Assembly: GCA_030704615.1 (NCBI GenBank)
Contig: CM060732.1
Location: forward strand, 78,430,001-78,494,000
Direction: 5' to 3'
Length of the DNA stretch: 64,000 nucleotides
Origin: Takakia lepidozioides
Taxonomy: Eukaryota > Plantae > Bryophyta
Position numbers and translations under genes: made by a program. A model generated the notes under the pieces. It ran no database searches. It was not told where the DNA came from and was given only the letters and a program-made list of their open reading frames with translations. Positions 13,878 through 61,526 of this stretch are shown here, in pieces (positions within the stretch are counted from its first letter, which is position 1; each line of letters begins with the position of its first letter).

Positions 13878-14467
13878 AATGCATTGAATTCATGCAAGCC
13901 ATGCCATATAGTAATTATGAATAGGCAGTAAAAATCTGGAAGATCACATAATTAGTCTATTAATAAATATCAAGGTAAGAGGATCTGAGCCCTGAATCAC
14001 CCATAGGTGGCACGCCCGGTAATATCCGATGGACTTTATGGCATGCACAAGAAGTTGAACGGATGTCATTCATTAAAAGATAGAATATTCTCTTGACAAC
14101 TGTCTCGATCCAATTGGAAGTCTGATCCAAAGTATAGGTGCCCTAAGCTGTTGCCAGCTCATCCTCATGCACAAAGCGTAAGTTCATCCAGACTACAGCC
14201 TACCTCCGTCCATCCCCACTTCATCCAGAGCACATCCCCCCTCCATTCATCCAAGTCGAATAAGCAGGTGAGGAGGAATCCCAGCTCCAAACAAACAAAA
14301 ACAAAAACGTAATAATAATGTACTAAAACTTATTATAAATTTGACCGGAGAAGCCGGTTGGCATGTGGGGGAAGCCCTAAAGGGATGCTGCGGAGCAGCC
14401 GTGTCTCTCTTTGGCTGCACCAAACGCCATAGCCATTTGCCTGCTGTTGCTGTGCCCGTGAGCGAAC

Positions 14468-15662
14468 ATGCCTCCCAAGTTGGACCCATCGCAGGTGGTG
14501 GAGGTCTACGTTCGGGTCACAGGTATGTCTTCTTGCCATAGTTTTTTGCTGGTGCTCGTTGTGTGCTTTCGGTGAGATTAGATACAGGGCAGTCAGGGGT
14601 GTAACTAGTTCCATAGCCGCCTCTTTTCGGAAACCCACTCGGTGGTGGATGTGGGATGTAGGTGGAGAGGTTGGTGCAGCATCATCACTTGCACCTAAGA
14701 TCGGCCCTTTGGGTCTGTCTCCAAAGAAGATTGGAGAGGATATTGCCAAAGAAACAGCCAAAGACTGGAAGGGTTTGCGAGTTACAGTCAAGCTCACTGT
14801 GCAGAACCGACAGGTTTGGTTGGCCTTCCAAGCAATACCCCTTCATTTCCATGATAGTTCTGTTGCATCTATGATAGGTTTACCTTTGGGTCTCTCTCTG
14901 AGAAGATTGGAGAGGATATTGCCAAAGAAACAGCCAAAGACTGGAAGGGTTTACCAGTTACAGTCAAGCTCATTGTGCAGAACCGACAGGTTTGGTTGGC
15001 CTTCTAAGCAATACCCCTTCATTTCCATGATAGTTTTGTTGCATCTATGATAGGTTTATACTTTTATCTCGGCCGCAAATGTGCTAATATCAGTGTGATC
15101 TTCGTCTATCTCTGTCTAAGAGAAAGAGTTTAGCTGCGTGTCAGAAACTGGCCAGCTGTGAAAAGGGACATGAAAGACTGGCAGAGATAGGAAAGACAGC
15201 TGGGCAGAACTGGGCATTGGTTTCTGTTCTGTCTGGTCATCGACGTATATGCAAAAACATCCATGTATGGATGGGCTGGTTAGTTTCTGAGTTTTGGTAG
15301 ATCTGGGTACCCTTCCTTTTGGCTTGGATAACATTTATGTAGGGGTGATGGACTGTAACTATGTTCTGTAGGCAAAGGTAGCAGTGGTGCCTAGTGCTGC
15401 AGCCCTGGTGATCAAGGCTCTGAAGGAGCCAGAGCGGGATCGGAAGAAGACAAAGAACATCAAGCACAATGGCAACATTTCTCTCGATGACGTGATTGAG
15501 ATTGCTAAGATTATGGCTCCAAGGTCCATGGCCAAGCAATTGGCAGGCACTGTGAAGGAGATTTTGGGGACATGTGTGTCGGTAGGTTGTACCGTCGATG
15601 GAAAGGACCCTAAAGATCTTCAAACAGAGATCGATGAAGGGGAGGTTGAGATTCCCGAGTAA
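14468..15662 (+). CDS. RPL12: 60S ribosomal protein L12 (uL11); exons 14468-14522, 14662-14813, 15372-15662; 165 aa
   Basis: [41 protein letters not shown]...[11 protein letters not shown] with GT-AG introns and an intact frame. Confidence 0.96.
14706..15058 (+). repeat. Tandem duplication (about 177 bp) of the RPL12 exon-2 3' half plus splice donor
   Basis: 14706-14882 is repeated at 14883-15058 with a few substitutions and a 1-nt deletion. Confidence 0.9.
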
Positions 15663-17674: not shown

Positions 17675-17934
17675 GTATCTTATGACCACAATTGACTTGT
17701 TGAGATTGTTTTCTGGTTGTACCAAAATCGTTTGTCATCTTGACTACTTTTTGCAGCAACAAATGAAGCGAGCAGCAAATTGTCTCTGTAGGTCCATCTA
17801 TATCAGGTTGACACTTGAATTTCAATGCATGTTGTTTGTGAGGCACAAGCAATTGTCCTATTTGTTGATCCATCCCGCTGTGTGATTTCACGCAGCAGAG
17901 ATTGTCTCTCAGAACAGGGGGTTGCAGTAGACAC

Positions 17935-18905
17935 TCTACGAGATTTGGTGTCGTGGAGTGCGATGATTGTAGGGTATGCACAGCAAAGGCGCGGGATGGA
18001 GGCTTTGGAGACCTATGAGCAAATGATGGGGGAAGGGGTGAAGCCCGACCACATCACGTTTGTATCCGTTTGCAATGCCTGTGCAAGCCTGGCAGCCCTA
18101 GAAAAGGGAAAAGAGGTCCATGGTGACATCGTCAAAGCTAGAATTGTACACTGCCCTAGTGGACATGTATGCCAAATGTGGGTGCATTGAGGATGCGAAG
18201 GGAGTGTTCGACAATATGGCTGAACGAAATGTGGTGTCGTGGAACGCGATGTTCGCAGGATATGCCCAGCATGGTATCATAGGGAGGTCCTGCAACTATT
18301 TGGGGGAATGTAAAAGAACCGGACAGTATCACCTTTATATGTGTTCGCTCTGCATGCAGCCACTTTGGCCTACTGAATGAAGGAAATCAAGATCATGGTG
18401 TTACTCCGACAGTAAAGCACTTTGGCTGTATGGTGGACCTTCTTGGATGTGCGGGACAACTGGATGAGGTAGTGGATCTGATTAATAAGATGCTAATCAA
18501 TCCAGACGTTGTGGTGTGGAAGGCCTTGCTTCATGCCTGCAGAATGCATGGCAATGTGGAGATGGCTGAACGTGCGGCAACATCTATCCTCAAATGGGAT
18601 GAACACTAGGATGCCGCGACTTATGTGTTGCTATCAAACATCTGCAAAGGTGAGAAGAATGATGAAGGTTAGAGGGGTTAGAAAGGAGCCAGGTCGCTGC
18701 TGCATTGAGGTTGGCAACAGGGTGCACACCTTCACTGTAGATGACATCCCAGAATTAAGGAAATCGATGTTGAGCTGAGGCTGGGCAGATGAAAGGAGGC
18801 GGGGTATGTGCCTGACACGCGCTTTGTATTGCATGATGTGGGGGAGGAGGAAAAGGAATTTTCTGTTTGCCACCATAGTGAGAAGCTGGCCATTGGTTTT
18901 GTGTC
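17935..18905 (+). pseudogene. PLS-class PPR-E-DYW pseudogene (DYW truncated after HSEKLA)
   Basis: P/L/S motifs, HFGCMVDLLG, PDVVVWKALL, PG box KEPGRCCIEV, then [10 protein letters not shown]. Contains frameshifts. Confidence 0.88.
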
Positions 18906-21721
18906 TGGAGACGAAGGTAGTGGATCTGCCAACATCCAGTCCAAGAGGTGAAGTCCTGGCAGAACGGGAAGAGGAGATTTCAAGTACCTGAATATTAGGC
19001 AAGAGGAATTGACCCTGCTAAGATGAAGTTGACTTGGAAGTTGACTTGGAAGCTGACGTGTCCAAGGCCATATTGGAAGAGTGCAGAATGTCCAAACAAC
19101 AGTTAGGCATAAAACCCTGAACTCATTTCTGGTTTGTGACATGGATGAGTGAAGGGGCAGTGCGTGTGCAAACCTGGAAGCCCTGGAAAAGGGGAAAGAG
19201 GTCCATGATGAGATCGTCAAAGCTGGAATTGTACCAGATGTCATTCTGAACACTGCCCTGGTGGACATGTATGCCAAATGTGGGTGTATTAAGGATGCAA
19301 AGGCAGTTTTCAACAATATGCAGGCTGAACAAGATGTGGTGTCGTGGAGCGCGATGCTTGCAGGGTATGCACAGCAGGGAGGCTTTGGAGACCTATGAGC
19401 AAATGATGGGGGAAGGGGTGAAGCCCAACCACATCACGTTCGTTTGCGTTTGCAATGCATGTGCAAGCCTGGGAGCCCTGGAAAAGGGCAAAGAGGTCCA
19501 TGATGACATCGTCAAAGCTGGAATTCTACCAGATGTCATTTTGAACACTGCCCTGGTGGACATGTATGCCAAATGTGGGTGCATTAAGGATGCAAAGGCA
19601 GTTTTGAAAGTTCAACAATATGCAGGCTGAACGAGATGTGGTGTCGTGGAGCGCGATGCGTGCAAGGTATGCACAGCAGGGACGTGGGGTGGAGGCTTTG
19701 GAAACCTATGAGCAAATGATGGGGGAAGGGGTGAAGCCCAACCACATCACGTTTGTGTGCGTTTGCAATGCATGCGCAAGCCTGGCAGCTCTGGAAAAGG
19801 GCAAAGAGGTCCATGGCGACATGGTCAGAGCTGCAGTTGTACCAAATGTCATTCTCAACAATACCCTCGTGGACATGTAGGAAGGGAGTGTTTGAGAGTA
19901 TGGCTGAACGAGATGTGGTGTCGTGGAGTGCGATGATTGCAGGATATGCACAGCAAGGGCGCGGGATGGAGGCTTTGGAGACCTATGAGCAAATGATGTG
20001 CGAAGGGGGTGAAGCCCAACCACATAACGTTTGTTTGCATTTGCAATGTGTGTGCAAGCCTGGCAGCCCTGGAAAAGTGCACAGAGGTCCATGGTGACAT
20101 TATCAAATCTGGAATTGTACCCGATGTCATTCTGAACACTGCGACATGTATGTCAAATGTGGGTGCATCGAGGATGCAAATGGAGTATTTGACAGTATTG
20201 CTGAACGTGATGTGGTGTCATGGAATGTGATGATTGCAAGATATGCACAGCAAGGGTGCGGGATGGAGGCTTTGGACACCTATGAGCAAATGATGTGCGA
20301 AGGGGTGAAAACCAACCACATCACATTTGTGTGCGTTTGCAATGCGTGTGCAAGCCTGGGAGCCCTGGAAAAGGGGAAAGAGATCCATGGTGACATCGTC
20401 AAAGCTGGAATTGTACCAAATGTCATCCTGAACAATCCCCTGGTGGACATGTATGCGAAATGTGGGAGCATCGAGGATGTGAAGGGAGTTAATTTCAACA
20501 CCATGGCTGAACGAGATGTGGTGTCGTGGAACGCCATGCTTGCAGGGGTATGCACAACAGGGGCGTGGGATGGAGGCCTTGGAGACCTATGAGCAAATGA
20601 TGGGGGAAGGGGTGAAGCCCGACCACATCACGTTTGTGTGCGTTTGCAATGCGTGTGCAAGCCTGGCAGCCCTGGAAAAGGGCAAAGAGGTGCATGGTTG
20701 CATCGCCAAAGCGGAACTGTACCAGGTGTGATCCTGAATATTGCCTTGGTGGACATGTATGCCAAATGTGGGAGCATTGAGGATGCAGAGGGAGTGTTCA
20801 ACAATATGGCTGTTGTCGTGGAACGTGATGCTTGCAGGATATGCACAACAAGGCGTGGGATGGAGGACTTGGACACCTATGAGCAAATGATGGGGGAAGG
20901 GGTGAAACGCGACCACGTCACGTTTGTGTGCATTTGCAGTGCGTGTGCAAGCCTGCAGCCCTGGAAAAGGGCAAAGAGGTGCATGGTTGCATCGCTAAAG
21001 CTGGAATTGTACAGATGTGATTCTGAACAATACCCTGGTGGACATGTATGCCAAATGTGGGAGCATTGAGGATGTGGAGGGAGTGTTCAACAATATGGCT
21101 GAACGAGATTTGTTGTCGTGGAACGTGATGCTTGCAGGGTATGCATAGCAGGGGCGCGGGATGGAGGCCTTGGATCATACCTATGAACAAATGATGGGGG
21201 AAGGGGTGAAATGCAACCACATCACGTTTGTGAGCGTTTGCAATGCTTGTGCAAGCCTGGCAGCCCTGGAAAAGGGCAAAGAGGTCCATGATGGGGGAAG
21301 GGGGAAGCCCGACCACATCACGTTTGTGTGCATTTGTAATGCGTGTGCAAGCCACATTCATTTGTGTTCTCAATGTTGGTGCCAGCATGGTGGCCCTGGA
21401 GAAGGGCAAAGATATCCATGCTGACATTATCAAAGCTGGAATAGGGATGATGTCCGATTAGGTCACATTTGTTTGCATCCTCAAGGCTTGTGCGAGACTG
21501 GCAGCCCTGGAAAATGGCAAAGAGGTCTATGCTGACATATGAATGTTGGAGTTGTACCAAATCTGATTTTGAACAATAGCCTTGTTGACATGTATGCGAA
21601 ATGCGGGAGCATGAAGGTTGCAAAGAGAGTATTTGACAACATGGCTGAACGGGATGTGGTGTCGTGGAATGCGATGATCACAGGATATGCCCAGCATAGG
21701 TGTGGGATGGAGGCTTTGGGG

Positions 21722-21911
21722 TGTCGTGCGCATACATATCGCTACACAACTACATCGCTGTCCAAAACCACACAACACATGTGCACACCACACACTAGTA
21801 TACCACTAGTCTACCACTAGTCCAGCCACTAGTCCAACCACTAGGCTACAACTAGTCAGTCACTAGGCTGCCACTACGCTGCCCACTATGGCAGTCACTA
21901 GTCCACACAAT
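21722..21911 (-). repeat. Repeat A, terminal copy (190 bp)
   Basis: Identical to 22240-22429; begins TGTC on the plus strand. Confidence 0.95.
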
Positions 21912-22237
21912 GATAAAGAAGAAGAATACAAGCACAAGCTCATGCGAGCTCACAAAGCTGAAGCATAAACTCATGCATATATAACCTCATCACTCAAATA
22001 CAAGTCAAGCCAAGTGCACCCCACGCCATGGGGAATCCACACTACGGCGCCATAGCTAGGCGCGGTGAGGCTCAACTCGAGAAAGATGAGCCTCCCGCGC
22101 TTGCCGTGAAGATAACCACCCCAGGGCCTAAATCTGCCTTGACCCCTGGATTGACACTTGGGCCAATCCCAAATGTCAATATGTAAAAGCTAGCTATTTC
22201 CTAGCTAGTTTCACACTAGTGGTAAAATAACTTGACA
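21911..22237 (-). repeat. Repeat B, internal copy (327 bp)
   Basis: Matches 33546-33872 except for the penultimate base (C versus T). Confidence 0.95.
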
Positions 22238-22239
22238 GC

Positions 22240-22429
22240 TGTCGTGCGCATACATATCGCTACACAACTACATCGCTGTCCAAAACCACACAACACATGT
22301 GCACACCACACACTAGTATACCACTAGTCTACCACTAGTCCAGCCACTAGTCCAACCACTAGGCTACAACTAGTCAGTCACTAGGCTGCCACTACGCTGC
22401 CCACTATGGCAGTCACTAGTCCACACAAT
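22240..22429 (-). repeat. Repeat A, internal copy (190 bp)
   Basis: Separated from B by GC (22238-39) within the palindrome GACAGCTGTC. Confidence 0.95.
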
Positions 22430-22439
22430 CGCCCCCCTA
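22429..22439 (-). promoter_or_regulatory. Polypurine tract (plus-strand primer)
   Basis: Minus-strand AGGGGGGCGA lies immediately before TTGTGTGG, the start of repeat A. Confidence 0.7.
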
Positions 22440-22687
22440 GCTGGTGCTTAGGTCCCTCTAAGTCCAGGTAGCCACAAGATGTGATAGTGACCATAGCCTC
22501 ACTAAGTCCTCCACCACTATCCCTACTACACTCAAACTCGATAGATCAAGAGGCCGGGTGCAAGAGTTGCCCCATCGTTAGTCGCCGTCTTGCAACCTGT
22601 GAACTTGAGCTTGGGATCTCATGTATTGACTCCTATGAGCTTGGCCTCCCATGTCTTGTTAGCTGCCTCCAGTCATGTCCACTGCCA

Positions 22688-24430
22688 CTATCCCAAGCAG
22701 TGTGGACACAACCAATCTCCGTCAGGAACCTTCTCAAGAGGTGGTGTCAAGCATCCCATATGCCAACCCCTTGAGCATCGATCACACACCAGCATGGTGG
22801 CTGCCCCTTTGGCAGACCCACAGAGCATGCACCTCAAACCTGCAGGTACCACTGCCAAGTTTGGGTCAACTCTGCCATCGACATTGGGAAGGTGACATGG
22901 CGCACAATTACGCACATGGTCCTTCCAAGTCATGCCATCCCGACCCTCCAAGATCAGGACCCCTGAGGGCAACACCTCTCGAACCCTCAGAATAACACGC
23001 CCTGCAGTAACATCCAGAGTCGTAGGAGCAGTCTGCTGCAAATAAACATAGTCACCAGGGCTAAACCTCCGAACCCCAGGACGATATCCTCCACCACGTA
23101 TAGTGGCATACCTCAACGTATCACGGTGCTGTGCAATGGCAAGGTTCTCAAAAGCCATGGGCATGACTTTCTTGAACAACTCTGCACGCTGATCACATGC
23201 ACGTACCCACACGTCCGGATCGTCAAGGTTAAGGACTTGAGCAGTGTCCCTACGAATGGCTGCAGGCAAATCCGGCTCTCGGCCAAAGAGAAGGAAATAT
23301 GGTGAGAAGGAGGCAAGTGATGCTTGTTTGCTGAACCTGTAGCCCATGGCTAACCAAGGAACCTGAAGATCCCAATCTCCTAGGTGTCCCTTCTGCAAGC
23401 CATACTTGCGCAAACCCCTCTTCACCGTCTGAACAACTCTCTCTGCTAAGCCATCGGCCTCAGGATGATCCCGAGAAGTGGTGCGGTGGTCTATCAAGGC
23501 TTTATCACACAAAGCCTGAAACTCCCCCAAGAACTCTCTCCCTTGGTCCGTGAGTACCTCAGCTGGAGCACCAAATCGGCTAAGCACACGATCCAAGAAT
23601 GCATACGCAGCCCCCTCACTAGCCTTGTCAGGCAATGGAACCAACTCAATCCACTTGGAGAAGTGCTCCACCATCACCAACACATATCTGTGGTGGCGCA
23701 TAGTCAGTGGCAACGGTCCTGCGAAGTCAAGACTCCACCTGTAGCCCAATCCCATGATAGGTAAAGGATGCAACTGTGGTGTAGGGGCGTTGAATGAAGC
23801 ACGCACCCTGTCACACACCATGCACCTAGCCACAAACTGTTGCACCTCTGTATGCATACCACGCCACCAATACTGCCCCTGCAGTAAACTGTGAGTGCGT
23901 CGCACTCCAAAATGCCCCAACTCCTCATGGGCATGCCGCACTAACCGTGCACGCTGTGTGGGGTGAGGCACAATCCTCACCCGACCATCCTCCCACACTC
24001 GAAGTAGGTGTATCCCCTCCCACTTGAACCTCTTGGCTCGTTGCAGGATCCGATCCCTCTCCCTGGCAGTCACAATGGCTGCCGTGTCTCCCGTGCGGAG
24101 GTAGTCCAACACAGCCGAATCCTCATGTATATCTCTGGCACCACCTAGCTCATCACTAGCCTCAGGGTCCTCAGACACTCCGTCTACAGTCATCCCTGTT
24201 GTAGGTCCAATCTGACCTCCCGATGCCAAGATACACAAAAATGCAGATGCGTGCCATCCCGGCACCATCTCCTCGTCCGTCTCACCATGCCACCGAGCTC
24301 CAGTGTCATCCTGCTGGCTCATGCATGGATTGCGACTCAATCCATCCGCATCCCGATTGACCAAACCCGGTCGATGCACAACCTGAAAGTCATACTCCTG
24401 GAGTATAAGTGCCCACCGTGCAAGCTTCCC
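22688..24430 (-). CDS. Integrase (HHCC, DDE) with C-terminal PHD finger (22697-22831)
   Basis: HEELGH...CMVC, WSLDFAGP, VLTDQGREF, GLAERVV. C4HC3 finger: CMLC...CDRC...HMGC...WLCPHC. Confidence 0.95.
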   Translation of the reverse strand, partial: GKLARWALILQEYDFQVVHRPGLVNRDADGLSRNPCMSQQDDTGARWHGETDEEMVPGWHASAFLCILASGGQIGPTTGMTVDGVSEDPEASDELGGARDIHEDSAVLDYLRTGDTAAIVTARERDRILQRAKRFKWEGIHLLRVWEDGRVRIVPHPTQRARLVRHAHEELGHFGVRRTHSLLQGQYWWRGMHTEVQQFVARCMVCDRVRASFNAPTPQLHPLPIMGLGYRWSLDFAGPLPLTMRHHRYVLVMVEHFSKWIELVPLPDKASEGAAYAFLDRVLSRFGAPAEVLTDQGREFLGEFQALCDKALIDHRTTSRDHPEADGLAERVVQTVKRGLRKYGLQKGHLGDWDLQVPWLAMGYRFSKQASLASFSPYFLLFGREPDLPAAIRRDTAQVLNLDDPDVWVRACDQRAELFKKVMPMAFENLAIAQHRDTLRYATIRGGGYRPGVRRFSPGDYVYLQQTAPTTLDVTAGRVILRVREVLPSGVLILEGRDGMTWKDHVRNCAPCHLPNVDGRVDPNLAVVPAGLRCMLCGSAKGAATMLVCDRCSRGWHMGCLTPPLEKVPDGDWLCPHCLG

Positions 24431-25821
24431 GTAAGCTTGTCTGACTCCATCAACCACTTGAGTGGCTGGTGATCCGTGACAAGGGTGAAAAGATTGCCGT
24501 ATAGATAGCACCTGAAGTGTGCCACGGCCCACACTGCAGCTAAGCACTCTCCCTCATATGAGCTGTACTTAGCCTCTGCAGCGTTGTTCGAGCGGCTAGC
24601 GTAAGCCACTACGAACTCTCTTCCCTCATCATCCACCTGTGTGAGCACCGCTCCAAGCCCCAGCATGCTCCAATCCGTATGCAGCTGAAAGGGACGCCCC
24701 CTGATAGGTCGTCTCAAGATAGGCGCCGAGGTCAACCTCGCCTTGAGCTCTTGAAAAGCTCGTTCCTGCTCATCTTCCCACTGCCACTCCTGGTCCACCT
24801 TGGTCAGCTTGGTTAGAGCCTTTGCAATGGTACTAAATCCCTTGACAAACCGTCTATAATAGTTTGCCAACCCCATGAAAGCTCGAACTCGGCTCACATC
24901 CGTGGGGCGTGGAATTTGTGCAATGGCCTCTACCTTAGTCTGCTGTACCCCCAATCCTCCAGGATATATCATGTGACCCAGATACTCAATCTGGTTGTGG
25001 AAAAACTTGCACTTCCCCGGATGCAACTTCAATCCGTGCGCTCTCAAGCGCTCCAATACCACCTGAAGGTGTCTCTCATGCTCCTCCATCGTAACACTAA
25101 AGATGATGATGTCATCTATGTAGCACCGAGCAAAGTCCACCCCTGCTAGAATCCTATCCATGACTCTCTGAAACTCTGCAGGAGCATTCTTAAGCCCAAA
25201 TGGTAAGAACCGCCACTGATATAGGCAATCCTTGCCGTGCTCATTGATCCCCCAGAATGCCGTCTTCTGCTTGTCCGCCTCCTTGATTGGCAACTGGTGA
25301 TATCCGGATCGTAAATCCAAAGTGCTAAAGGCCTTAGCATGCCCGATGGCATCAAAGATCTCCTCTGGTGTTGGCATGGCATACTTATCGGACTTGGTCT
25401 GACGATTTACAGGCCGGTAATCACCGCACATACGTCTCTCCGTCCAATTGCCATAGACATCCTTCTTGGCTGGCATCACTGTGGCTGAAGCATACTCTCC
25501 ACCAGAGAGCTCCACCAAACCTGCCTCCCAGAGATCTTGAGTCCTCATCTGAATCAAAGACCTCTCCATGTCACTGTATCTATAGGGTCTCCGAAAGATT
25601 GGCGTGTCAGTGGCCAACTCAATACGGATCTCTTGACCCTTCAGTGCTCCCAAGTCCTTCAAACTGAAGGCAAAGCAATTCCTGTAAGCCCTCAGGAACC
25701 GCCGTATACGTCGTCTCTCTCCTCCGGTGACAATGGGTCCAATGTCAGGCTCCCAATTGTCCTCCGTAACTACAACCTTAAGTCCAGTGGGCTTAGAGGT
25801 AGAGGACGCGTCCCGTGGTTG
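24431..25821 (-). CDS. Reverse transcriptase and RNase H
   Basis: [39 protein letters not shown]; RNaseH LHTDWS, YEGECLA, TDHQPL. In frame with the MTase ORF across a single TAG. Confidence 0.95.
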
Positions 25822-27144
25822 CTATGCTGCAACCTCTTGAGCAGTACTCCCTACCTGCTCAGTCAATGACAAGGCATCATCCTGCCCCATCATCTCATCC
25901 TTGAGGACCTCCTCAACTCGAGAAGAATCCCCAACCTCATCCATCACAGCCGCCTTGGCTGCCAACTCCCTCTGAACCTCGAGCACCTCCCACGTGTGCC
26001 ATGGATGCATGCACCCCGTGGTCCTCATATGCTCGCCCCCACTCACTGCCTGTACCGTCTCGGTAGGCAGAGAGACCATTGAGGGAAGTGTATTCCGCAC
26101 TCTGCGTTGCTCAGCTAGAGCCAAGCTGATAATCCAGGTCAAGCAATTGAGATCCATTGCTTGCCCCAACACTTGACGACGTGATGCCTCAGAAAGAGAC
26201 GACACCGCCGTGGTACCAGTGGTAAAACCCATTGCCCGCTCACGCTCGTCAGCATTAGGCTCCACTAACTGCTGCAACTGAGCATCCCACAGGAGGCCAG
26301 GTCCACTATCCCGGAAAGCATGCGATCCTGGGAAGCTGAGCAGTGTAGGTAATGCTGCTCGTGGTTGACCCACCTTGTTGACCACTGCCAAAGGCGAACG
26401 GTCATCGTGTCTCACACGTTGAGACTGCCTCCCTGTGTCCAGAATGTTATCCACTGTGAGATGTGCTGGCCGCTGCACCCCATCAAATGCACGCTTGAGC
26501 AGTGCGGGTGGCATCATGTTAGTCCACCATAGCCGTGGACGATGAGCCCGTGACCCCACTGTAGCTGCATCCAGCAACACTGCTGACCCAAGCCACGACC
26601 GGACTTGATGCACACTGGCCATCACCCTGGCCCGAGAATCGCCCATCAGTGGCACATTCTCCAAGATGTATGCTGGAGATACAGCTTGATGAAGCTGCAA
26701 GTGGCGCAAAACCCGCACCATCTCCCAAAACAGACCCGACCTCGAGTCTCGCAATCCATTGCCATGCCCGGCTGATGAATGCCCTTGGCAGGGCCAACCT
26801 GCCACTACCAGATCAATGGAGCCAACCCGCTCCAAATCCTGCGCCCCCAGCAACGAAATGTCTGCTGGCAAGGCCTGCTGATATCCACGAATTGCAGACA
26901 CCGACAACAACTCAGGGTACCGCTGCACCAACTGAGCAACATGGCGAAGTGAAACGCGTCGTGCAGTCTCATCCCTCTCCACATACAGGTAACGCCGAAC
27001 TCGTACACCTGCCTGTAACACAGCAGCCAATCCGGTGCTGATCCCGCCAAACAAGTCCAGAAGACAAATGCCTTCATCCGGAGACTGCCACACAATAGGT
27101 GTGGTGTCCAATGGAGACAATTGAGGTGGTCCTGGTGCAATCCC
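25822..27144 (-). CDS. C5 cytosine DNA methyltransferase domain, DNMT3-like (catalytic core about 26130-27069)
   Basis: Motif I LLDLFGGISTG, II YVERD, IV DLVVAGWPCQ (Cys codon 26790-26788), V LFWEMVRVL, VI YILENV, VIII AHRPRLWWTN, IX ERERAMGF, X RRQVLGQAM, all in linear order. Confidence 0.93.
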   Translation of the reverse strand, partial: GIAPGPPQLSPLDTTPIVWQSPDEGICLLDLFGGISTGLAAVLQAGVRVRRYLYVERDETARRVSLRHVAQLVQRYPELLSVSAIRGYQQALPADISLLGAQDLERVGSIDLVVAGWPCQGHSSAGHGNGLRDSRSGLFWEMVRVLRHLQLHQAVSPAYILENVPLMGDSRARVMASVHQVRSWLGSAVLLDAATVGSRAHRPRLWWTNMMPPALLKRAFDGVQRPAHLTVDNILDTGRQSQRVRHDDRSPLAVVNKVGQPRAALPTLLSFPGSHAFRDSGPGLLWDAQLQQLVEPNADERERAMGFTTGTTAVSSLSEASRRQVLGQAMDLNCLTWIISLALAEQRRVRNTLPSMVSLPTETVQAVSGGEHMRTTGCMHPWHTWEVLEVQRELAAKAAVMDEVGDSSRVEEVLKDEMMGQDDALSLTEQVGSTAQEVAA

Positions 27145-28656
27145 ACACTCTCCTCCTCTCCTGACGGTACAAAAGCCTCCACCCAGGCTTGTTGCACCCG
27201 TCGATCAGCATCCCGCTGCAAATCCTTGCTCGTGCCCCACAATGGAGTCTGAGCAACCATGGTAGGCAACTCCGCCATACCATACATGTCATCCTGCTCT
27301 CCCGGAGGTGGTACATCCTCTGAATGAGCATTGCCCTCAAGCAACTCTCTAGGCCAACTCACTGCCGCTGTGAATGCTGCTAGTGTCGGCATCTTGCCTC
27401 GCTGGGCAACCGCAACTCCTCCTATGAACGTCACAGGGAGCTGCACACGCCGGCCCTCCCCTGACTGCCATGCAGGCCTATAGGAAGCTGACTCCTCCCA
27501 AAAATCCAGGGTGAAGCCCATGGGGTACAACACTGCCCCACCAACCAGGACATCGTATGAGACTGCGTCTGTCACAATGGCCTTGGCTCGCATCACTGAG
27601 CCATCTGTAGGGTGATCCGGCCGTAGTCTGATAGCCAACTCATGCCGTGTCATGCCCCGAGCCTGCTCCGATCCTCCCAGAGACGTCTGTATCTGGAAAG
27701 GACAAGGCTCCATATCCGCCTCCGTGAGGCCCAAGCCTGCAATAGCAGCTCTGCCCAGCATCAGTGGCTGAGCTCCCGAGTCCAACAAGACTCGCAGTGG
27801 CCGGTACCTCTTGCCTGCCGGTCCACTCAAACAGAAAATGTCATCCTGGTTGTCTAACATGACAACTCCAGGTGTCACCATGGCGCGCTCAATGGCTGGC
27901 CTAGCTGGCAGCTCCATCAACCTGGCAGCTGCAGCTTGCCATGGCGCCGCCGTGGCAGTCTTGACCCTCAAATCCGAGGATCCCTCCGGCACTACACCTC
28001 CCACTATCTCCGCAGAAGATGAAGTAACCTCCCCACTCTCACAGAGTGTAGCTGCCAGCCTGAACACCTCAGCTGGTCTTACCCCGGCGTCGCAATCATG
28101 GTAGCCGAAGAACAATGGAGCCTGGCACACAGATGTGGCCGCTCCTAGCAGCACACTAGCTGCCGTAGCCTTGGCAACACTAGGTAGTGGTGCTACCCGT
28201 GTAGCTCTCCCCAATGGCATAGTGACCTCCGCCTCGGTAACAGTCGGGCGAGAACTAGGTGCCATGGATGGCGTCGACACTGTCTCCGCCAATGTGAATG
28301 ACTGAGGAAGCCTAGCCTGACGGCTTGCCTCCCCACGCTGTGGATCCAACTCCACCTCTGCACCTCGTGGCTCAGGAACTCGTGCTGCTCCTCGAGTCAC
28401 GGCTGCAGCAGACTCCACCTGCACTAGTGGTAGTGCTGCTCCACACATGAATCCCATGCCTCCCATATCTCCTCCCTCAGGAGCAGGAGGTGGACCATCC
28501 GGCCTTAGAGCCGGTACCACCTGAGCTGTAGCCATGGCAGCGAGCCTCTGCTCTAGCTGCTGAAGCCGGTTGGCCATGCCTTGGTCAACACCCTGACCTC
28601 CGCGTCCTTGGCCACGTTGAGCTTGCCCTTGGCCTCGTGGCTGGCCACCTCGTCCC
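27145..28656 (-). CDS. Gag-pol linker and retropepsin aspartic protease
   Basis: RVLLDSGAQPLML and YDVLVGG motifs. Confidence 0.88.
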
Positions 28657-30183
28657 TCTGGGCTGCTCCACCTCGCCCCCGGCCACCATTGTTCCCTTGG
28701 AACTGGCCTGGGCGCAACTCAGGATGCAAACCATAACACTGAGCCTCTCCATGCCCGTGTTTGCCACAATGCCCACACTGTAACTGTGCAGGCTGTGCAT
28801 GTGCCGGCCCTTTGCCTCCCTCTGGACAATCCTTCTTGACATGGGGTCCTCCACATGTCCAGCACACCACATCCGCCCGTTGTTGGCCAGCAAATGAAGG
28901 GAGAGACCCCTGCATCTGAGGTCCTCTCTGCCCTTCCCTGAGCTTCACCTGAGCCCCCTTGTTGCCTTGAGCACGTTGAGGTAGTGGTTGGCTAGGAGCA
29001 CCACTACCCCGTGGTGTCTCCTTAGCAAATCCCACCATGACCACTCGTTCCTCCACCATGTTGAGCTCTATCCGCTCTGCCAGCAAAAACACATTTGCTA
29101 AGGTGGGTTGGGCCGCTTGTAGGAGAGTTGCATCCCGCACCCTTCTCCTCAGCTCCTTGTCCAATATCCCATACCAGAATTGGACTGCCTGAGCTTCCGT
29201 AACCCCTTGGGTTACATTTATCAAGCGCCTCATGCGAGTGAAAGCCTCCCTCAAGCTCTCGGTCGGCTTCCGTTGGAACTCTTGCAAGCTCCGCAACTTC
29301 TCTGTCCTCACCCCTTGGTAGTTCCCTCTCAACTCTTCGAAGAACTCCACGACAGGGTTGAAGGCAGGCACGGGTGCTAGTGCTGGTGCGGTAGTGGCTT
29401 GGGTGGACGTCGTAGCTACTGTACCACCAGTCCCACTGCTGCCTGCTGAAGCTGCCGGTGCAGCGGCAGGTGTAGCCACTGCCCTCGTGGCTCTAGTGCC
29501 CCTAGTGATGGAGACATAGTCGGGTGACCAGTACATCCTCCACTCCTCGATCTCAACCTCATGCCCCCGCCTGAACTCATGGTAATCATCCATAGGCGGC
29601 CCCTCAAGGTGCTGAAACAGCCCTTTCCATGCCATGAACGGCGTAAATAGTTGTGGATTGCGCATTTGCTGCAAATCACACCAACTATCAAACTCTTGGA
29701 TAAAATCATCCAACTCAATGGTGCCCACCGCCCCAGAGTACCTTCGTGGCCCCTTGGTAGCTCCATACATCTCCTCCATTGTGTCCCACAACAATGGCAA
29801 AGAAACAACTTGCACCGCCGGTATGAGTCCTCCTGATTCACAATCCGAATCAGAACCTTCCGTAGAAGACACAGGAGGTGAAGGTGGCCTAAACCGCACA
29901 CCTCGTCTCGTGTACCCACTAGTATCGCTAGTGCTCGAACCGGCACTGTCCCCAGCAACTAGTGGCACCTCCGTGTTGACACTCAACCGGTCATGAACAT
30001 GTCCCTAACCCCCTCTCCACAAGGTAACCGGGTAGAGAACCTGTTGCGGCTTATGGTTTGGAATACTAAGTTCCTAACATAGCCTACACCTGTACCTGCA
30101 TCCACCGCAAGCACTCCTATGGTTGGCTGGTCACTCACCTCCAACCTCACCACAGGAGAAACAATGATGGTCTGGCTGGTCAT
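28657..30183 (-). CDS. gag: Gag with two zinc knuckles; start uncertain (ATG 30183 if a further 1-nt slip at about 30004 is corrected)
   Basis: FQRKPTESLREAFTRMRRL, CWTCGGPHVKKDC, CGHCGKHGHGEAQC and an RGG-rich tail. Confidence 0.85.
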
Positions 30184-30689
30184 CACCCCAGCCTCACCAT
30201 CGACAGCATGCTCTAGGACTGGCCGGTGATCAAATCCGGACCAATCACCTATAAAAACAAGCGCCCACACAAAACTAGCATGGCGCACAGTCAAGCATGC
30301 AGGTATGGAGGGGATCCAAACACAAGAAATCAGATCGACAACTCCCCCACACCAAAACAACTCCACGGTGTTGCTCCTGCAAGGACACCCCAGCCCAAAC
30401 CCGGACTGACTCTTGCCTCCACCTACGGAAAGGTCTTGGCCTAATGAGAGGGTGGAAACTACGAGGAAGAGAAGCTAAAGCAATGCCTAACCCCAGCATG
30501 CTCTCATCCCAACACTCTGCCTCTCCTCTCTATCCTCACTTGCATGACCATGGGAATATCATGAAGATACTCCTCAAACCGCCCTCCACGAGCTTCAAAA
30601 TTTGGCCTTCCAGACCACATGCCAGTCCTTAGGCAGTCCACCAGTGCCTCCACGAGTCAGCACAGGCCGTCCACAGGTCAACACGGCCA

Positions 30690-32105
30690 CCACAGACCAG
30701 CACAGGCCCACACAGCTCACTGGTCAGGCCGTCACAGTCCCACAGGCCACTGGGCACAGCCTGTCGCAGCCCTCACAGCCTCAACAGCCTGTCACAGCAC
30801 AAACGCCTCAAGGCTCACTTCCACGGCCTGTCACACAGCCTGACCAGCCGTCACAGCCCCACAGGCCACAGGGCACAGCCTGTCACAGCCCCCACACACA
30901 GCCCTCAACGCCCTCACAGCCTGCCACAGCCACCCACAGCCCGTCACAGCCCCACAGCCTCACAGCCTCACACCCTCACACCACACACCCGTCACAGCCC
31001 CCAGGGCACAGGGCACAACCCTGTCACAGCCCCTCACAGCCCTCACAGCCCCAAAGGCCTCAGGCACGGCCTGTCACAGCCCCTCACAGCCCGTCACAGC
31101 CCCAAAGGCCATGGGCACGGCCTGTCACAGCAGCCATCACACCACAGCCAATCCCCCTCACAGCACTGCCTTCACAGCCCCCCAAGCCATCACAGCCTTC
31201 ACAGCCCCTCACACAACCCTCAACCCACACCTCACACACACGACAGCCCTCACAGCCTCAGCACCCTGTCACACCCCTCACAGCCCGTCACAGCCCCAAA
31301 GGCCATGGGCACACAGCCTTCACAGCTCGCCACAGCCTTCACAGCCCGTCACAACACACCTCCCCAAGGCCTCAGGGCACAGCCTGTCACAGCCCCGCAC
31401 AGCCCGTCACAGCCCCAAAGGCCACTGGGCACAGCCTGTCACAGCCTGACACACACATCAGCCCGTCCCAGCCCCACATCCTCACACACAGGGCACAGCC
31501 TGTCACAGCCCATCACAGCCCATCATAGCCGGTCACAGCTCCACAGCCTGTCACAGCCCGTCACAGCCCCACAGGCCACTGGGCACAGCCTGTCACAGCC
31601 CGTCACAGCCCCACAGGGCACAGGGCACAGCCTGTCACAGCCCCTCACAGCCCGTCACAGCCCAAAGGCCTCAGGCACGGCCTGTCACAGCCCGTCACAG
31701 CCCCAAAGGCCACTGGGCACAGCCTTCACAGCCTGACACAGCTTGCCACAGCCTGTCACAGCCCGTCACAGCCCCACAGGCCACTGGGCACAGCCTGTCA
31801 CAGCCCATCACAGCCCCACAGGCCATGGGCACAACAGCCTGTCACAGCTCGCCACAGCCTGTCACAGCCCGTCACAGCCCCACAGGCCTCAGGGCACAGT
31901 CTGTCACAGCCCCGCACAGCCTGTCACAGCTCGCCACAGCCTGACACAGCCCGCACAGCCCCACAGGGCACAGGGCCAGCCTGTCACAGTCCCTCACAGC
32001 CACGCCCGTCACAGCCCCAAAGGCCTCAGGCACAGCCTGTCACAGCCCCAAAGGCCACTGGGCACAGCCTGTCACAGCCTGACACAGCCCGTCACAGCCC
32101 CACAC
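30690..32105. repeat. Minisatellite of about 1.4 kb made of CACAGCC/CCTGTCACAG units in the element's 5' leader
   Basis: Dense cacagcc, tgtcacagcc and ggccactgggcacagcc units. Confidence 0.93.
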
Positions 32106-33503
32106 ATGGCCGCTCTGGCAGTTTAGCCATTTCTCCAAGGGGTTTAGCCACGCCAAGCTAGGGTTTGTGTCTCTTGGACTCTAGGCTTCTTTCCACCGAG
32201 CTATGGTGGCTGTGAGGAAATCAGCAAGGTATCCTTGCTCTTTCGGCTCCCACACACCACCATAGTAGCCCTAAGCCATGAGGTGGTTGCCACAAACCAA
32301 GCCTTCTTTCTCACTTAGCCTCCCCAACCACGCCACTAAACTCAATGGCAAACAACCAAGCCCTGCTGGTTCCCAGCCCTTGTGAGCACTCATTCAAGCA
32401 CTCCCCTCATTGACCATAGCATCTGTCTTAGAGCCTATTCCAGCCCTCTACACCTGTTGCTTCAAGAGTTGCGCTCCCTCCAAGCTTGAAGTTGAAACCC
32501 CAACTCACATAGGCCCTACAAGTGCTGTTCTTTCACTCCAAGTGGAAACCAGCCCTAGACCTTCCGTTCTAGCTCTCTAAGGCTTGAAACAAGAGCCTCA
32601 ATGGGCTGAAGGCATGCTCCACACATGCCCCACTCTCACCATAAGAGAATCAGCTCCTTTGCTTCATTTCTCGCACCCACAAACCTGAAAGTGCAAGCCT
32701 TCATCAGGCTGATAGCATGCTCCACACATGCATTGCCCTCACATAAGGGAAGTCAGCCCTTCCACTTCCTTGCTTGCCCTCCAAGCTTGAAGATGGAAGC
32801 TTCAATGAGCTGAATACATGCTCCACACATGCAACCTCTTCACACAAGAGATATCAGCCCCCTATCTTGGCTCCTTGGCTCCTTGATGCTCTCTAAGACA
32901 AGACTAAGCACTCCACAGCCTTTGCCAAGCTCCTGAAACCCTAAGACTTACATTTCCAGCCACAAGACACTTCTCTTGTGGTGCAAGAGCTCTTCTTCCA
33001 GCTCTGAAACCCTAGGTGCACATTCCATGGCCTTGCCGCACCTCTTAGCTCCTGTTCCACCATGCTCTTGCCATGACAAGAGCCCTCTCAATGCTGAAGC
33101 TCGAGATTGAAACCCAATCTCACCACACTCCACAAAGTGCATTGATTTGCCGCAAGCCAAATCAGCCCTTTCGCTTGGTCTTGCAATCCTTCACACAATG
33201 AAAGCTCGCATTCCCAAGTCCAGTTCTCAGCTTTGCCACCAAAGCCACTATAACCTGCTCTTGACTGGTCCTCTTCCCAATCGTGCTTGCTCATGCATGT
33301 ACACAATCTGGAACCATCAAGGTGCTCTGGAATTACCTGCAGCATGGTGCTTTCATCTCTGAAGCTGAAGATCAAATGCCAAGGTCTACCACCTCGTAAC
33401 CCACATCGCCTCCGCTTCTAACAACCAAGAGCTCCACGGTGCTCCTTGCATAACAATTTGGTTTCTCTCATTCTCAAGCAAAAACCACAAGTGCTACAAC
33501 TAA

Positions 33504-33545
33504 CTCGTATCTAGCACTCATAGATACGAGCTCATCTTTCTCGAG
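33504..33545 (-). promoter_or_regulatory. Non-tRNA PBS-position sequence (16 nt complementary to 33711-33726) plus adjacent 10-bp hairpin
   Basis: GCTCATCTTTCTCGAG (33530-45) is the exact reverse complement of CTCGAGAAAGATGAGC (33711-26). Hairpin: ctcgtatcta-gcactca-tagatacgag. Confidence 0.7.
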
Positions 33546-33872
33546 TGATAAAGAAGAAGAATACAAGCACAAGCTCATGCGAGCTCACAAAGCTGAAGCA
33601 TAAACTCATGCATATATAACCTCATCACTCAAATACAAGTCAAGCCAAGTGCACCCCACGCCATGGGGAATCCACACTACGGCGCCATAGCTAGGCGCGG
33701 TGAGGCTCAACTCGAGAAAGATGAGCCTCCCGCGCTTGCCGTGAAGATAACCACCCCAGGGCCTAAATCTGCCTTGACCCCTGGATTGACACTTGGGCCA
33801 ATCCCAAATGTCAATATGTAAAAGCTAGCTATTTCCTAGCTAGTTTCACACTAGTGGTAAAATAACTTGATA
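33546..33872 (-). repeat. Repeat B, terminal copy (5' end of the element)
   Basis: Matches 21911-22237. Confidence 0.95.
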
Positions 33873-36644
33873 GGGGACCTATGAGCAAAAGATGCGGAAG
33901 CATTCAACAGAATGCCTCAACGATCTTGATCACGTGGAATATAATGTTGGCAGGATTTACCAAGCATGGGTGTGGTAGGAATGCTTTTGAGACCTATGAG
34001 CAGATTATGTGCAAAGGGGTGAAGCCCAACCACATCAGATTTGTTTGTGTTTGCAATGCATGTGCAAGCCTAGCAGCCCTGGAAAAGGGCAAAGAGGTGC
34101 ATGGTTGCATCGCCAAAGCTGGAATTGTACCAGATGTGATTATGAACAATACCCTCGTAGACATGTATGCCAAATGTGGGAGCATCGAAAATGTGGAGGG
34201 ACGAGATGTGGTTGCATTTCACGACGAGATTGTGAACGAGATTTGGTGTCATGGAACGCCATGTTTGTAGGATATGCACAACAGGGGTGCGGGATGGAGG
34301 CCTGAGGGAAGGGGTGAAGCCCGACCACATCACGTTTGTGTGCATTTGCAATGCGTGTGCAAGCCTGGCAGCCCTAGAAAAGGGCAAAGAGGTTCATGGT
34401 GACATCATCAAAGCTGGAATTGTACCAAATGTCATTCTGGACACTGCCCTGCTTCACTTGTATGCGAAATGTGACTGCAATGAGGATGCAAAGGGAGTAT
34501 TTGACAATATGGCTGAATGAAATGTGGTGTCGTGGAATGCGATGATCGCAGGATATGCCCAGCATGGTTGTCATAGGGAGGTCCAACAACTATTTGAAGG
34601 AATGTAAAAGAAAGGCTTGAAGCTGGACAGTATCACCTTTATATGTGTTCTCTCTCCCTGCAGCCACACTGACCTACTGAATGAAGGAAGATGCTACTTC
34701 GATTCCCTGAGTGAAGATCATGGTATCAATCTGACAGTAAAGCACTTTGGCTGCATGGTGGACCTTCTTGGACGTGCGGGACAACTGGATGAGGCAGTGG
34801 ACCTGATTAATAAAATGCCAATCAATCCAGATGTTGTGGTGTGGAAGGCCTTGCTTGGTGCCTGCAGAATCCATGGCAATGTGGAGATGGCTGAATGTGT
34901 GGCAACATCTATCCTCAAGTGGGATGAACATGATGCCACGACTTATGTGGTGTTATATCAAACATCCATGTTGCAGCTGGCAGATGGGATGATATTGCAA
35001 AGGTGAGAAGAATGATGAAGGTCAGAGGGGTTAAAAAGGAGCCAGATGACAAGTTGCATCCCAGAATTAAGGAAATCCATGTTGAGCTGAGAAGATTGTC
35101 TGGGCAGATGAAGGAGGCGGGGTATGTGCCTGACACACGCTTTTTATTGCATGATGTGGAGGAAAGGAATTTTCTCTTAGCCACCACAGTGAGAAGCTGG
35201 CCATTGGTTTTGGGCTGATCAACACGACTCATCAAGAATCTTCGAGTGTGTGGAGACTGCCACACCTCCACCAAATTCATCTCAAAGATTGTTGGCCAAG
35301 CAATTGTTGTATGGGACGCTAACTACTTTTCACCACTTTGAAGATGGGATTTGTTCTTGTGGTGATTACTGGTGAAAGGATGTTTTCTTGGAAAGATGCT
35401 AGTGTCTTGCTTCATTCCTTGATCTGTGTAGCTACTCAGACCATCCACCATTTCCTGATAGTGGGGTCTACCCGGCATAGGTAGGAAGTCAGCCCACAAT
35501 TGCACTTGACTGAAGGGGTGATTTTTGACTGATTCTGGTGCAGTGGATGGAAATCAGAGTGCTGTCCTAATTCTGGTGGAGCTTCTCTAAAGCTTGAAGA
35601 TGGAAGTGAATACGAATTTTAATGAGCTTGATGAGAGGGGCAGCCCTGTGCACAAGTTTGTTCAGCATCTTAAATTTGGACATGTTTGTTGTTTCTCGTG
35701 GTGTGGCTTTGGATGGAGCCCTTGATGAACTTACATGATTATTGTCAAAAGCTAGCCTTAACCCACCAAGATCCAATCCCACGGTGGATGCTTGAAAGTT
35801 CATATAGCAAATGTAAGGGTATTTGGGTATGTTGTTATTGATTGATGTGGCTTGTGAAAATTGAATGTTGAAATGCAGATCCACCATTTTTCTTCCAGAA
35901 AAAAACAAAACACGGGACCTCTGCATGTAAACACCGTGGGGATGACCCACCCTTTTTTTGTGAAAAATTGAACTTAGTTCTTAGAATTCGTCGCTAGTAG
36001 TGTGGAGCAACGCGAAGCCCTAGTTGAGTGAAGACAGTTTACAGCAGAGGAGCCCGATCCCACCGACCACGTGCAGGACATTGCCGCATTCGGAGTGTGC
36101 GGGAGGACGTGGAGCCAGCTATGTTGCCCATTTTTGTACATATATTCTAGCGACGACCTAAGGTCGGAAGCTAGTTTAGCGTAGAGCAGGAATAGGGTGC
36201 CATAGTGCCACGTCATCGTCGCCATGTCATCATAGACACGTCATCGTCGTCGTCAATTTCTTTGGAACCTGCCCAGAATGCCCTCGCGAAATAGGCCAAT
36301 AGAAATCGTCGCGCCAACGTTTTAGGAACTGCCCGCAATGCCCGGATCTTGATCTTCTTGATCTTCTTGATCTTCTTGATCTGCGTTTTCCGCCATCGTT
36401 CACCTTGCAAGCACATGCATGGATAGCTGAAGGAGCAGGGATCGAGTGTGGGTCCAGATTCATAGATCGATCCGACATTATCTTACTACAGACACAAGCA
36501 GCACACACAACATGTTATTGCCAGGTTGTGTTTCAATCTCTGCCTCCTATTAGTACCATGATTTGGTATTCTTCCTGATGTTTACAAGGTTCTTGCGAGA
36601 GTCAGCTTGGTCTTGCCAGGCCGTGTTTCAATCTCTGCCTGCTT

Positions 36645-36960
36645 AGAGATCCACGCTGACCTTGTTAAAACTGGATTAGCGCTTACTGGAGTCTGCCCTT
36701 GCTGACATGTATGCTGAATGTGGGAGCATGAACTATGCATGTCAAGTTTCAACAATATGGCAAAACGAAATATTGTCCCTCGGAGTTCAGTGATAGCAGG
36801 ATGTGCTCTGCATGGGTGCAGCAGAAAAGTTTTTGAGACCTACGAGCAAATGCAACATGAAGGGGTAAGGTCGAACAGGGTCACGTCCATTTGTGTTCTC
36901 AATGCATGTGCCAAATTTGGAGCCCTGGAAAAGGACAAGCGGGTCCCTGCTGACTTTAGG
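36645..36960 (+). pseudogene. Diverged PPR fragment
   Basis: DMYAECGS...ETYEQMQHEGVRSNRVTSICVLNACA. Confidence 0.7.
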
Positions 36961-37090
36961 AAAACTGTTGCACATTATATTAGCTTGGACACAATCAAGG
37001 CAAAAAGGTGAATGCCTGTTGGAAGCATAAGAAAGTCAGCATAGGAACTAGTGTGATAAGTCTAGGCTGTATGAGTATCCTTGCTTATAG

Positions 37091-37548
37091 CTGCATCCAT
37101 GAGGTGAAATCATGGAAGCTTCGGACGCAGTCCTTGTGGCATTTGCAAAAAGTGGACAAGTGAGTCGAAATGCTGCTTGTCCATGCGGCTCTAGAAAGAA
37201 GTACAAGAGGTGGGTTCTCGCTCTTTTCACAGCTCCTCTCATCTCTCTGCCCCATTCCAATGGGAGTGTTGTAAGGCGGAGAGAAGCAATGTTTCTGGCT
37301 GCTTTATCTCACATTCATACTTAAACAGATGGATTTTGTGGCTAGATGAGTCAAATTTCAAACTTAAAGCAAAGCAAGTAGTACTATCAAACATCATGTG
37401 GCCTGGCAATAAGCTGGTCGTGCGGCATCTATGGCTTGAACACTATCTTACAAGCAAAGTATGCTCCAAATATATTGCCTATCCTTTACTAGACCATGAC
37501 TGGTAAAAATCTGGGGAGTTCTGTTGCAGGTGTTGTAGGAAGTCATAA
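37091..37548 (+). pseudogene. Orphan last two exons of a SEC-C motif protein (37091-37209, 37530-37548)
   Basis: QVSRNAACPCGSRKKYK-R|CCRKS* is spliced across a GT-AG intron. An upstream in-frame TGA is present. Confidence 0.7.
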
Positions 37549-37721
37549 GCTTGGACTTGAAACAGGGAAGTCATGTTGCATAAGCACGCACTTATGAAGA
37601 GTTTGTGCTCTGTTGTGAGGTCAGGTGGCCTCCTGCCGTTTTATCGTTATGGTCACCTACTTTCATTCCAAAGGGACTTTGACAGATGCAACTGGGTCTT
37701 TACATCTTTACATCAGCACTT

Positions 37722-61154: not shown

Positions 61155-61526
61155 GGGCCGCTTTACACTAGGGCCCAAGCCCAAGAAATCTTGGGCCCAA
61201 TTTCTACCACTCTTGGGCTGGTCTTGGCCAACTTCAACGGTCATGATCAAACAGTCATGATCGCACAAAAATAATCTATTTTAATACCAAACTTCTTGGG
61301 CCCAAGAGTTGAGAGTTGGGTCTCCATTCCAGGAGGGTTCCTTTTCCTTGGTCCGGCCCAAGAAGTTGGTGCCAAAACTTGTGCCACGTAGGCAAATCAC
61401 CCACTTCCATTTTCTTGGGCTCGGGCCATAGTGTAAAGCCGTTGGGCCCAATTTTCAGGCCTCCGCCAATGGGAATGCTCCATTCTCACTTGGTCGTGGG
61501 CTTGGGCCCTAGTGTAAAGTGGCCCC
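61155..61526. mobile_element. Tourist/Harbinger MITE
   Basis: TTA TSD at 61152-54 and 61527-29. 28-bp TIR GGGCC(G/A)CTTTACACTAGGGCCCAAGCCC. Confidence 0.88.

Follow-up and report, generated by a model that had tools for sequence, protein, structure and literature searches.

A green-plant Ty3/Gypsy lineage, represented in Takakia lepidozioides, with split and permuted repeats and a candidate internal integrase site

The 64,000-nt stretch of the bryophyte Takakia lepidozioides analyzed here (the window; contig CM060732.1 of assembly GCA_030704615.1, positions 78,430,001 to 78,494,000) carries on its minus strand, at 21722-33872, a long terminal repeat (LTR) retrotransposon whose repeats are split and permuted. 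Self-comparison of the window located two repeats, A and B, in the sense order B (327 bp), internal region, polypurine tract (PPT), A (190 bp), GC, B and A, and found no copies of either beyond these two each. The A copies (21722-21911 and 22240-22429) are identical at 190 of 190 positions and the B copies (aligned at 21911-22238 and 33546-33873) at 327 of 328, the repeats overall being 99.7-100% alike. The single difference between the B copies, at 33871, turns the 5' TG into TA, and the 5' B repeat (33546..33872) begins TATCA, one transition away from the TGTCA with which its relatives begin. In sense order the PPT (22432-22440) lies just before the inner A, which ends CGACA and is separated from the 3' B repeat (21911..22237) by a GC dinucleotide at 22238-22239. 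The terminal A (21722..21911) also ends CGACA and has base 21911 in common with the 3' B, the two meeting at the B|A junction through a microhomology of 1 nt. A 4-bp target-site duplication, GGGG, flanks the element on its 5' (33873..33876) and 3' (21718..21721) sides. The repeat order, the duplication and the position of the PPT had been called in an original prediction made from the sequence alone and were all recovered; the end-to-start junction that it placed at 21911/21910 was also seen as the B|A joint, with the correction that base 21911 belongs to both repeats.

The insertion splits a pentatricopeptide repeat (PPR), of which the window holds five paralogous, uninterrupted 20-base sites. 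The target forms part of a long array of decayed PPR repeats at 17900-21721 and 33873-42900, with Pfam PPR matches at 40981-41733. The family is multi-copy in the host, because three runs of DNA reads over 21300-34300 cover all 30 bins deeply and yield many variant contigs; these bins are too coarse to resolve junctions, and among the assembled pieces listed none spans the whole stretch.

The coding region, on the minus strand throughout, consists of five overlapping or abutting frames. A gag frame with Cys/His knuckles (28553..30004) matches Retrotrans_gag weakly (E 0.0023, below the cut-off), and the next frame (26805..28718) carries the aspartic-protease-like motif LLDSGA, a motif without a Pfam match here and accompanied by PF13650 in two relatives. 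They are followed by a C5 cytosine DNA methyltransferase domain (25822..27204; PF00145, E 5.7e-13, with aligned DLFGG, GWPCQG and ENV motifs), by reverse transcriptase and RNase H (24337..25821), whose closest matches among solved structures are 4ol8 and Ty3 Gag-Pol 7q5b (E ~1e-68), and by an HHCC-DDE integrase that continues into a PHD finger (22688..24553; PF17921, PF00665 and PF00628, the last with E 2.3e-10, plus motifs). We take the methyltransferase motifs to resemble those of Dnmt3. Frame changes and one stop between coding frames disrupt this copy, and tandem-repeat arrays (30646..32833) occupy the long 5' non-coding region. The methylase (PF00145) and the PHD finger (PF00628) had gone unmentioned in the original prediction, which described an HHCC-DDE integrase without a recombinase; the integrase motifs are present, and of the 44 frames of at least 80 aa, the 40 scanned matched no tyrosine recombinase, the other four lying mostly in flanking PPR DNA. 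The domain scan likewise matched no chromodomain after the integrase, where the PHD finger stands instead. The order protease-reverse transcriptase-RNase H-integrase with a Ty3-like reverse transcriptase (protease by motif only) is that of Ty3/Gypsy elements, as are TG..CA ends with a duplication of 4-6 bp (TA(TG)..CA and GGGG in the window), and the copy is a recent, frame-broken member of a green-plant Ty3/Gypsy lineage.

Related loci were gathered by integrase alignment from metagenomes, where 464 were confirmed in the 26 of 64 parts scanned and the best 80 taken, and from genome bins (9 loci); 87 loci were analyzed, and two at ~25% identity were used solely as outgroup. A copy of A or B was present in 47 of the 87, four of which are uninformative on the 3' end. 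In the remaining 43, the 3' end reads A-2 bp-B-A in 24 loci (19 distinct) and stops at the first A in 15 (13 distinct). Four have other 3' ends: in L078 a deletion runs into B and is followed by A, in L082 and L004 B is followed by a primer-like site, the pattern that a collapsed assembly would give (the ends of the L082 contig are identical over 127 bp), and the last, L066, is weighed below. Both ends were recovered in eight loci, four with the form of the window (L014, L025, L060 and L081) and four with a sister form, B-internal-A (L007, L011, L019 and L028). With the window included, these nine both-end elements comprise no ordinary LTR pair, and in none of them does A-GC precede the 5' B. 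Perfect 4-bp duplications flank five of the nine and duplications with 3 of 4 bases matching another three; a 5-bp duplication was considered and rejected, as it misfits all five perfect cases.

The layout of the window is thus repeated across 19 distinct related loci with integrase identities of 47-75%, four of them with both ends. Because related loci repeat the layout and no both-end element is an ordinary LTR pair, the arrangement is lineage-wide and a one-off rearrangement is excluded. Independent insertions with the permuted layout and 4-bp duplications, as well as B-internal-A derivatives, had been anticipated in the original prediction and were found in related loci of other genomes, the derivatives in the four both-end loci named above; the ordinary A-gc-B pairs that it named as evidence to the contrary did not appear among the nine. 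The element is Ty3/Gypsy by its proteins and ends, yet lacks the two whole terminal LTRs, delimited by PPT and primer site, that are typical of the group, and it is neither a DIRS nor a Troyka element.

Among named relatives, Calypogeia, Riccia, Marchantia and Sphagnum encode integrases up to 82-85% identical to that of the window, Klebsormidium integrases are 55-57% identical and that of Haematococcus 47%; methyltransferase-bearing Gypsy elements, known from Klebsormidium, occur in liverworts and peat moss too. In a quick integrase tree, rooted at the midpoint, containing no reference chromoviruses and with L019 dropped as too short, the window falls among liverwort and peat-moss sequences (support 97). 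Within the group of the window the methylase lies between protease and reverse transcriptase; in a set of distant relatives (L033, L041, L055, L057, L065, L068-L070, L072-L077 and L088) it lies between RNase H and integrase, and it was undetected in L063, L084, L086 and L087. Judging by this varying position in pol, the methylase has moved or has been gained more than once. The retroelement contigs L082-L088 come from bins labelled as bacteria or archaea and are probably eukaryotic contamination. A search of viral contigs returned nothing useful.

The junction of the inner A with the 3' B is conserved between these elements. There the palindrome GACA-GC-TGTC (22234..22243) sets two attachment (att) ends against each other across a common 2-bp spacer (22238-22239) and constitutes the predicted integrase cut site. 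Both-end elements begin TGTCA (TATCA in the window) and end ACA, mostly as CGACA or TGACA, which are the two halves of this inner junction. In a list of 21 A|B junctions, two rows of which were read with a one-base offset, the spacer measures 2 bp in all 21 and is GC or its transition product in 20. The exact 10-mer GACAGCTGTC (GACA-GC-TGTC) has 16 matches in 871,878 bases, all of them downstream of an integrase, against 0.85 in shuffles. Its carriers are scattered over the entire ingroup of the quick integrase tree; the eight distinct ones have just 44-49% integrase identity, and some have the methylase elsewhere in pol or undetected. In relatives the PPT is marked by a conserved G run, and the bases that follow it, the predicted start of the DNA copy, read ATAC, CTTG or TTGT and not a conserved TG. 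Hence, because the junction palindrome is conserved while the start of A after the PPT varies, the conserved integrase signal is internal, and the predicted start of the complementary DNA (cDNA) carries none. The original reading of A-gc-B as a TG...CA repeat fails on the same variation at the start of A.

Recessed CA ends with 2-nt 5' overhangs are the normal strand-transfer substrate of an integrase, and nicks after CA on both strands of CA-GC-TG would yield two such ends here. Foamy-virus integrase cuts the palindrome at a circle junction in this way, nicking each strand after CA and so producing 5' overhangs of 2 nt (PMC1180852), and 2-LTR circles of human immunodeficiency virus 1 (HIV-1) can feed integration (PMC4372172).

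The terminal A of each element could in principle be inherited as a separate template or be recopied from the inner A. For one subfamily, represented by 11 distinct loci, the distance between a terminal A and its own inner A averages 0.087, against 0.126 for random pairing (0 of 10,000 permutations), and the same holds for transversions only (0.0135 against 0.0258; 0 of 10,000). In this subfamily the terminal A has private indels and transversions in common with its own inner A, no signal separates inner from terminal copies as classes (155/300), and the length of the B|A junction varies by ~0-4 nt. Larger losses at this junction occur in L002, L025 and L037. A second subfamily, of four loci, points in the same direction (0.073 within an element against 0.095 between elements, compared directly and not by permutation). 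A/A and B/B identities also agree within each both-end element (92/94, 90/88, 88/89 and 91/92). These comparisons indicate that the terminal A was recopied from the inner A of its own element, and that it behaves as a regenerated U3 piece of the left LTR shifted to the right end; inheritance as a separate template was rejected for the 11-locus subfamily by the permutation test. In two loci (L059 at 11551 and L067 at 4846) the inner A is interrupted by a ~1-kb insertion starting TGAC.

The predicted primer-binding site directly after the 5' B, another element of the original prediction, lies at 33530..33546; it is no tRNA site and is, rather, the complement of a 17-nt site inside B (33710..33726), the predicted transcript start and self-primer. 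The complementary run measures 17 nt in the window and in L014, 15 nt in L025 and 11 nt in L081, lengths matched by none of 200 random internal 36-mers, and only 9 nt in L060, a value reached by 8 of the 200. Seven of 12 B copies of the 5' type have runs of 11-17 nt, and the paired sequence differs among four families. Several relatives present a TATA-like box ~25-30 nt above the complementary site; such a box is not clear in the window. A hairpin with a predicted 10-bp stem (33497-33525, minus strand) directly follows the predicted primer site. In Tf1-type priming the 5' end of the element's own RNA serves as primer. The complementarity leads us to predict self-priming of this type, with transcription starting at the complementary site and a promoter placed inside B; the 5' B would then comprise the promoter-proximal U3, R and U5 together with the left att end, the inner A would be the distal U3, and the terminal A would supply the right att end. 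Because the predicted promoter lies within B, an element without a 5' A could still be transcribed. Self-primed groups are known in plants (PMC6317226).

Taken together, these observations are compatible with the following replication cycle. The transcript would start within the 5' B and end within the 3' B, and its own 5' end would prime reverse transcription in the manner of Tf1. The usual strand transfers and priming from the PPT would then give a DNA copy of the form A-GC-B-internal-A-GC-B, whose free ends, carrying no conserved att signal, would be joined slightly imprecisely as B|A. Integrase would nick after CA on both strands of the left palindrome, producing ends with a recessed CA and a 2-nt GC overhang, and insertion with a 4-bp duplication would yield B-internal-A-GC-B-A. 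The sister form B-internal-A could arise from a one-repeat circle, from cutting of both palindromes or from later A-by-A recombination. That integrase cuts the internal palindrome of an end-joined, probably circular, DNA copy, and does not use the copy's own ends in the way of ordinary retroviruses and LTR elements, is the interpretation we consider likely. The layout, the termini, the duplications, the palindrome, the recopied terminal A and the complementarity are observed, and the ends of the transcript, the priming, the circle and the cutting are proposed.

Several observations weigh against this interpretation. The circle, the cDNA and the transcript are inferred, none of them having been observed. 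The mirror form B-A-GC-B-internal-A occurs in none of the nine both-end elements, and all five elements with two B copies share one form; the mirror product would be expected equally often, because the two palindromes in a free 2-LTR circle are equivalent. One idea is that the left palindrome may be the first to become stably double-stranded during strand displacement, and so could capture the integrase. In the subfamily of L014 the B|A junction is near constant (three of four loci, and L078), with A replacing the G of the PPT copy, which could mean inheritance. Five of the 12 B copies have just 6-9 nt of complementarity, L028 lacks a target duplication, L066 reads A-B and then runs into unrelated DNA, and L069 has the palindrome and no second A tail within 10 kb. 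Neither A nor B was matched in 40 of the 87 loci, their contigs being short or their families distant, and no listed read-derived piece spans the window's own locus. The last point speaks for a one-off rearrangement, a tandem insertion or an assembly error of an ordinary LTR element, an explanation that we regard as very improbable given that other genomes hold the layout at 19 distinct loci, that a curated Chlamydomonas library and Klebsormidium show it as well, and that the duplication is a clean 4 bp in a PPR repeat whose paralogous sites are intact.

The near-constant junction of one subfamily would also fit replication of the DIRS or PAT kind, in which a full-length transcript templates the terminal A and the B|A joint and the split layout is inherited, a DDE integrase having replaced the recombinase. 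The repeat order agrees with this, being the A-coding-B-A-B given for DIRS-type elements in a figure legend of PMC5890265. The terminal A, however, carries the private transversions and indels of its own inner A and forms no class of its own, the conserved PPT and the primer-like site point to ordinary LTR-type priming, and in the other subfamily the junction varies in length, so that we hold such replication to be improbable. A closer competitor dispenses with the free circle: integrase may cut the left palindrome of a linear copy and insert both att ends, the loose B and A ends being joined during or after insertion, or an end-to-end jump of reverse transcriptase may write B|A. It yields an identical insertion, and could explain the sole use of the left palindrome, the microhomology in the window and the near-constant junction of the L014 subfamily. 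It leaves, however, a chromosome break in need of repair, and junctions are mostly clean within ~4 nt (more is lost in L002, L025 and L037); we consider it unlikely, if clearly more plausible than DIRS-like replication. Cutting of an end-joined copy therefore remains our preferred interpretation. In the original prediction circularized cDNA was integrated through an internal att site; the permuted ends with duplications and the recopied terminal A agree with that proposal, the circle in it stays inferred, other ways of joining the ends fit equally, and the mirror form is missing.

The precedent for the split layout is KnitGypsy-Dnmt3 of Klebsormidium nitens (de Mendoza et al. 2018), for which one line of the Fig. 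4c legend notes a DIRS-like repeat arrangement with Gypsy domains (PMC5890265), and not Troyka, which the original prediction had named as a possible precedent. KnitGypsy-Dnmt3 and the element of the window both have a C5 methyltransferase inside a Gypsy pol and DIRS-like split repeats; the available text of PMC5890265 gives no termini, duplication, palindrome, priming, PHD finger or mechanism. In the quick integrase tree one K. nitens protein, which may not be the named element, groups with the subfamilies described here (support 90, unstarred), and no K. nitens names appear among the methylase matches listed. Troyka elements (Kojima 2025) have CG..CG ends, 3-bp duplications and ordinary LTR pairs and are restricted to animals, with no split repeats found in the portion of PMC12440569 available; they resemble the present element as an LTR-retrotransposon group with unusual ends, and differ from it in ends, duplication and host. 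PAT, Ngaro and TOC1 elements and SymbioDIRS-Dnmt3 share split direct repeats in the same order, and SymbioDIRS carries a methyltransferase too; the element of the window differs from them in its DDE integrase, TG..CA ends, 4-bp duplications and PPT, and no recombinase was found. With Tf1/sushi and Tcn1 chromoviruses it has in common a primer site that complements its own LTR and needs no tRNA match (PMC6317226), here on the evidence of complementarity, and differs in having a PHD finger in place of the chromodomain, split repeats and a methyltransferase in pol.

The closest Chlamydomonas systems are Gypsy-14a_cRei, Gypsy-14b_cRei and Gypsy-7a_cRei, from the curated Chlamydomonas reinhardtii library of Craig et al. 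(PMC9940879). Gypsy-14a_cRei starts TGTCG and reads B...PPT-A-gc-B...A, with coding for an integrase and a PHD finger as judged by eye. Gypsy-7a_cRei, which made 86 new insertions in one laboratory strain (PMC9940879), closes its internal part with a purine run followed by accgaca-gc and its LTR entry with gaccgaca, and according to the legend its left LTR lacks the final 8 bp; read by eye, this possible relative is an 8-bp miniature of the layout in the window. In place of the full palindrome it has CCGACA-GC-TGTGG, and its primer site is of the TGG type; in the Chlamydomonas elements A spans 8-60 nt, against 190 in the window. Nine of the 11 palindrome matches in the part of the PMC9940879 supplement examined lie ~40-60 nt from a PPT-like run, and no discussion of the split layout was found in the available main text. 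In L069, a PPT-like run ~13 nt before the palindrome (+1460 to +1480 from the integrase end) delimits a very short A, like that of Gypsy-7a_cRei.

Foamy virus and HIV-1 offer a parallel in mechanism, in that a DDE integrase acts on 2-LTR junctions, cutting the foamy palindrome after CA on each strand, and circles are able to serve integration (PMC1180852, PMC4372172). In those viruses the palindrome is formed when the cDNA ends are joined, and its use is a side route that gives back a normal provirus; in the lineage of the window it is encoded in the genome, inside the repeat, and was used by every both-end insertion seen. A preprint (10.64898/2026.05.21.726589) names streptophyte Gypsy-DNMT3, and no passage on split repeats was found in the part available. 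Searches for Gypsy elements with permuted LTRs or an att site placed internally found no paper, a subject on which supplements, Repbase reports, theses and subscription papers may say more. The split layout is thus in print, in one line, and the internal palindrome, the recopied terminal A, the sister form, the self-priming and the range of the lineage were not found in the literature searched.

Other features of the window are unconnected with this element. A second, different retrotransposon is marked by a Ty3-capsid gag at 1036-2175 on the minus strand, and no integrase match was found elsewhere in the window. An N-terminal fragment of ribosomal protein L11 (PF03946) at 14433-15058, with a 177-bp tandem duplication at 14706-15058, is probably a pseudogene. 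At 61155-62250, short inverted repeats of 32-34 nt lie among simple repeats rich in T and G and are perhaps the remnant of a small DNA transposon.

An old question of retrovirology is whether LTR circles lead to integration or are dead ends (PMC4372172). On balance we lean towards regarding the element as part of an ancient green-plant Gypsy lineage, ranging from chlorophytes to bryophytes, in which the att site would have shifted from the cDNA ends to a genome-encoded palindrome and an obligate end-joined circle would be opened by a DDE integrase. For programs that search for TG..CA repeat pairs, the ends of B-internal-A-GC-B-A would likely be misplaced, and the repeat-free B-internal-A, which accounts for 13 of the 32 distinct 3' ends that belong to the two main forms, would likely be missed. 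Integration from a joined copy, in which a single dinucleotide serves both att ends, seems to be what the lineage as a whole is built for. If this is true, it would provide a natural LTR element that has circles as its integration precursor, with Gypsy-7a_cRei as a laboratory-active example, and if Gypsy-7a_cRei works in this way the route would be testable in ordinary Chlamydomonas strains.

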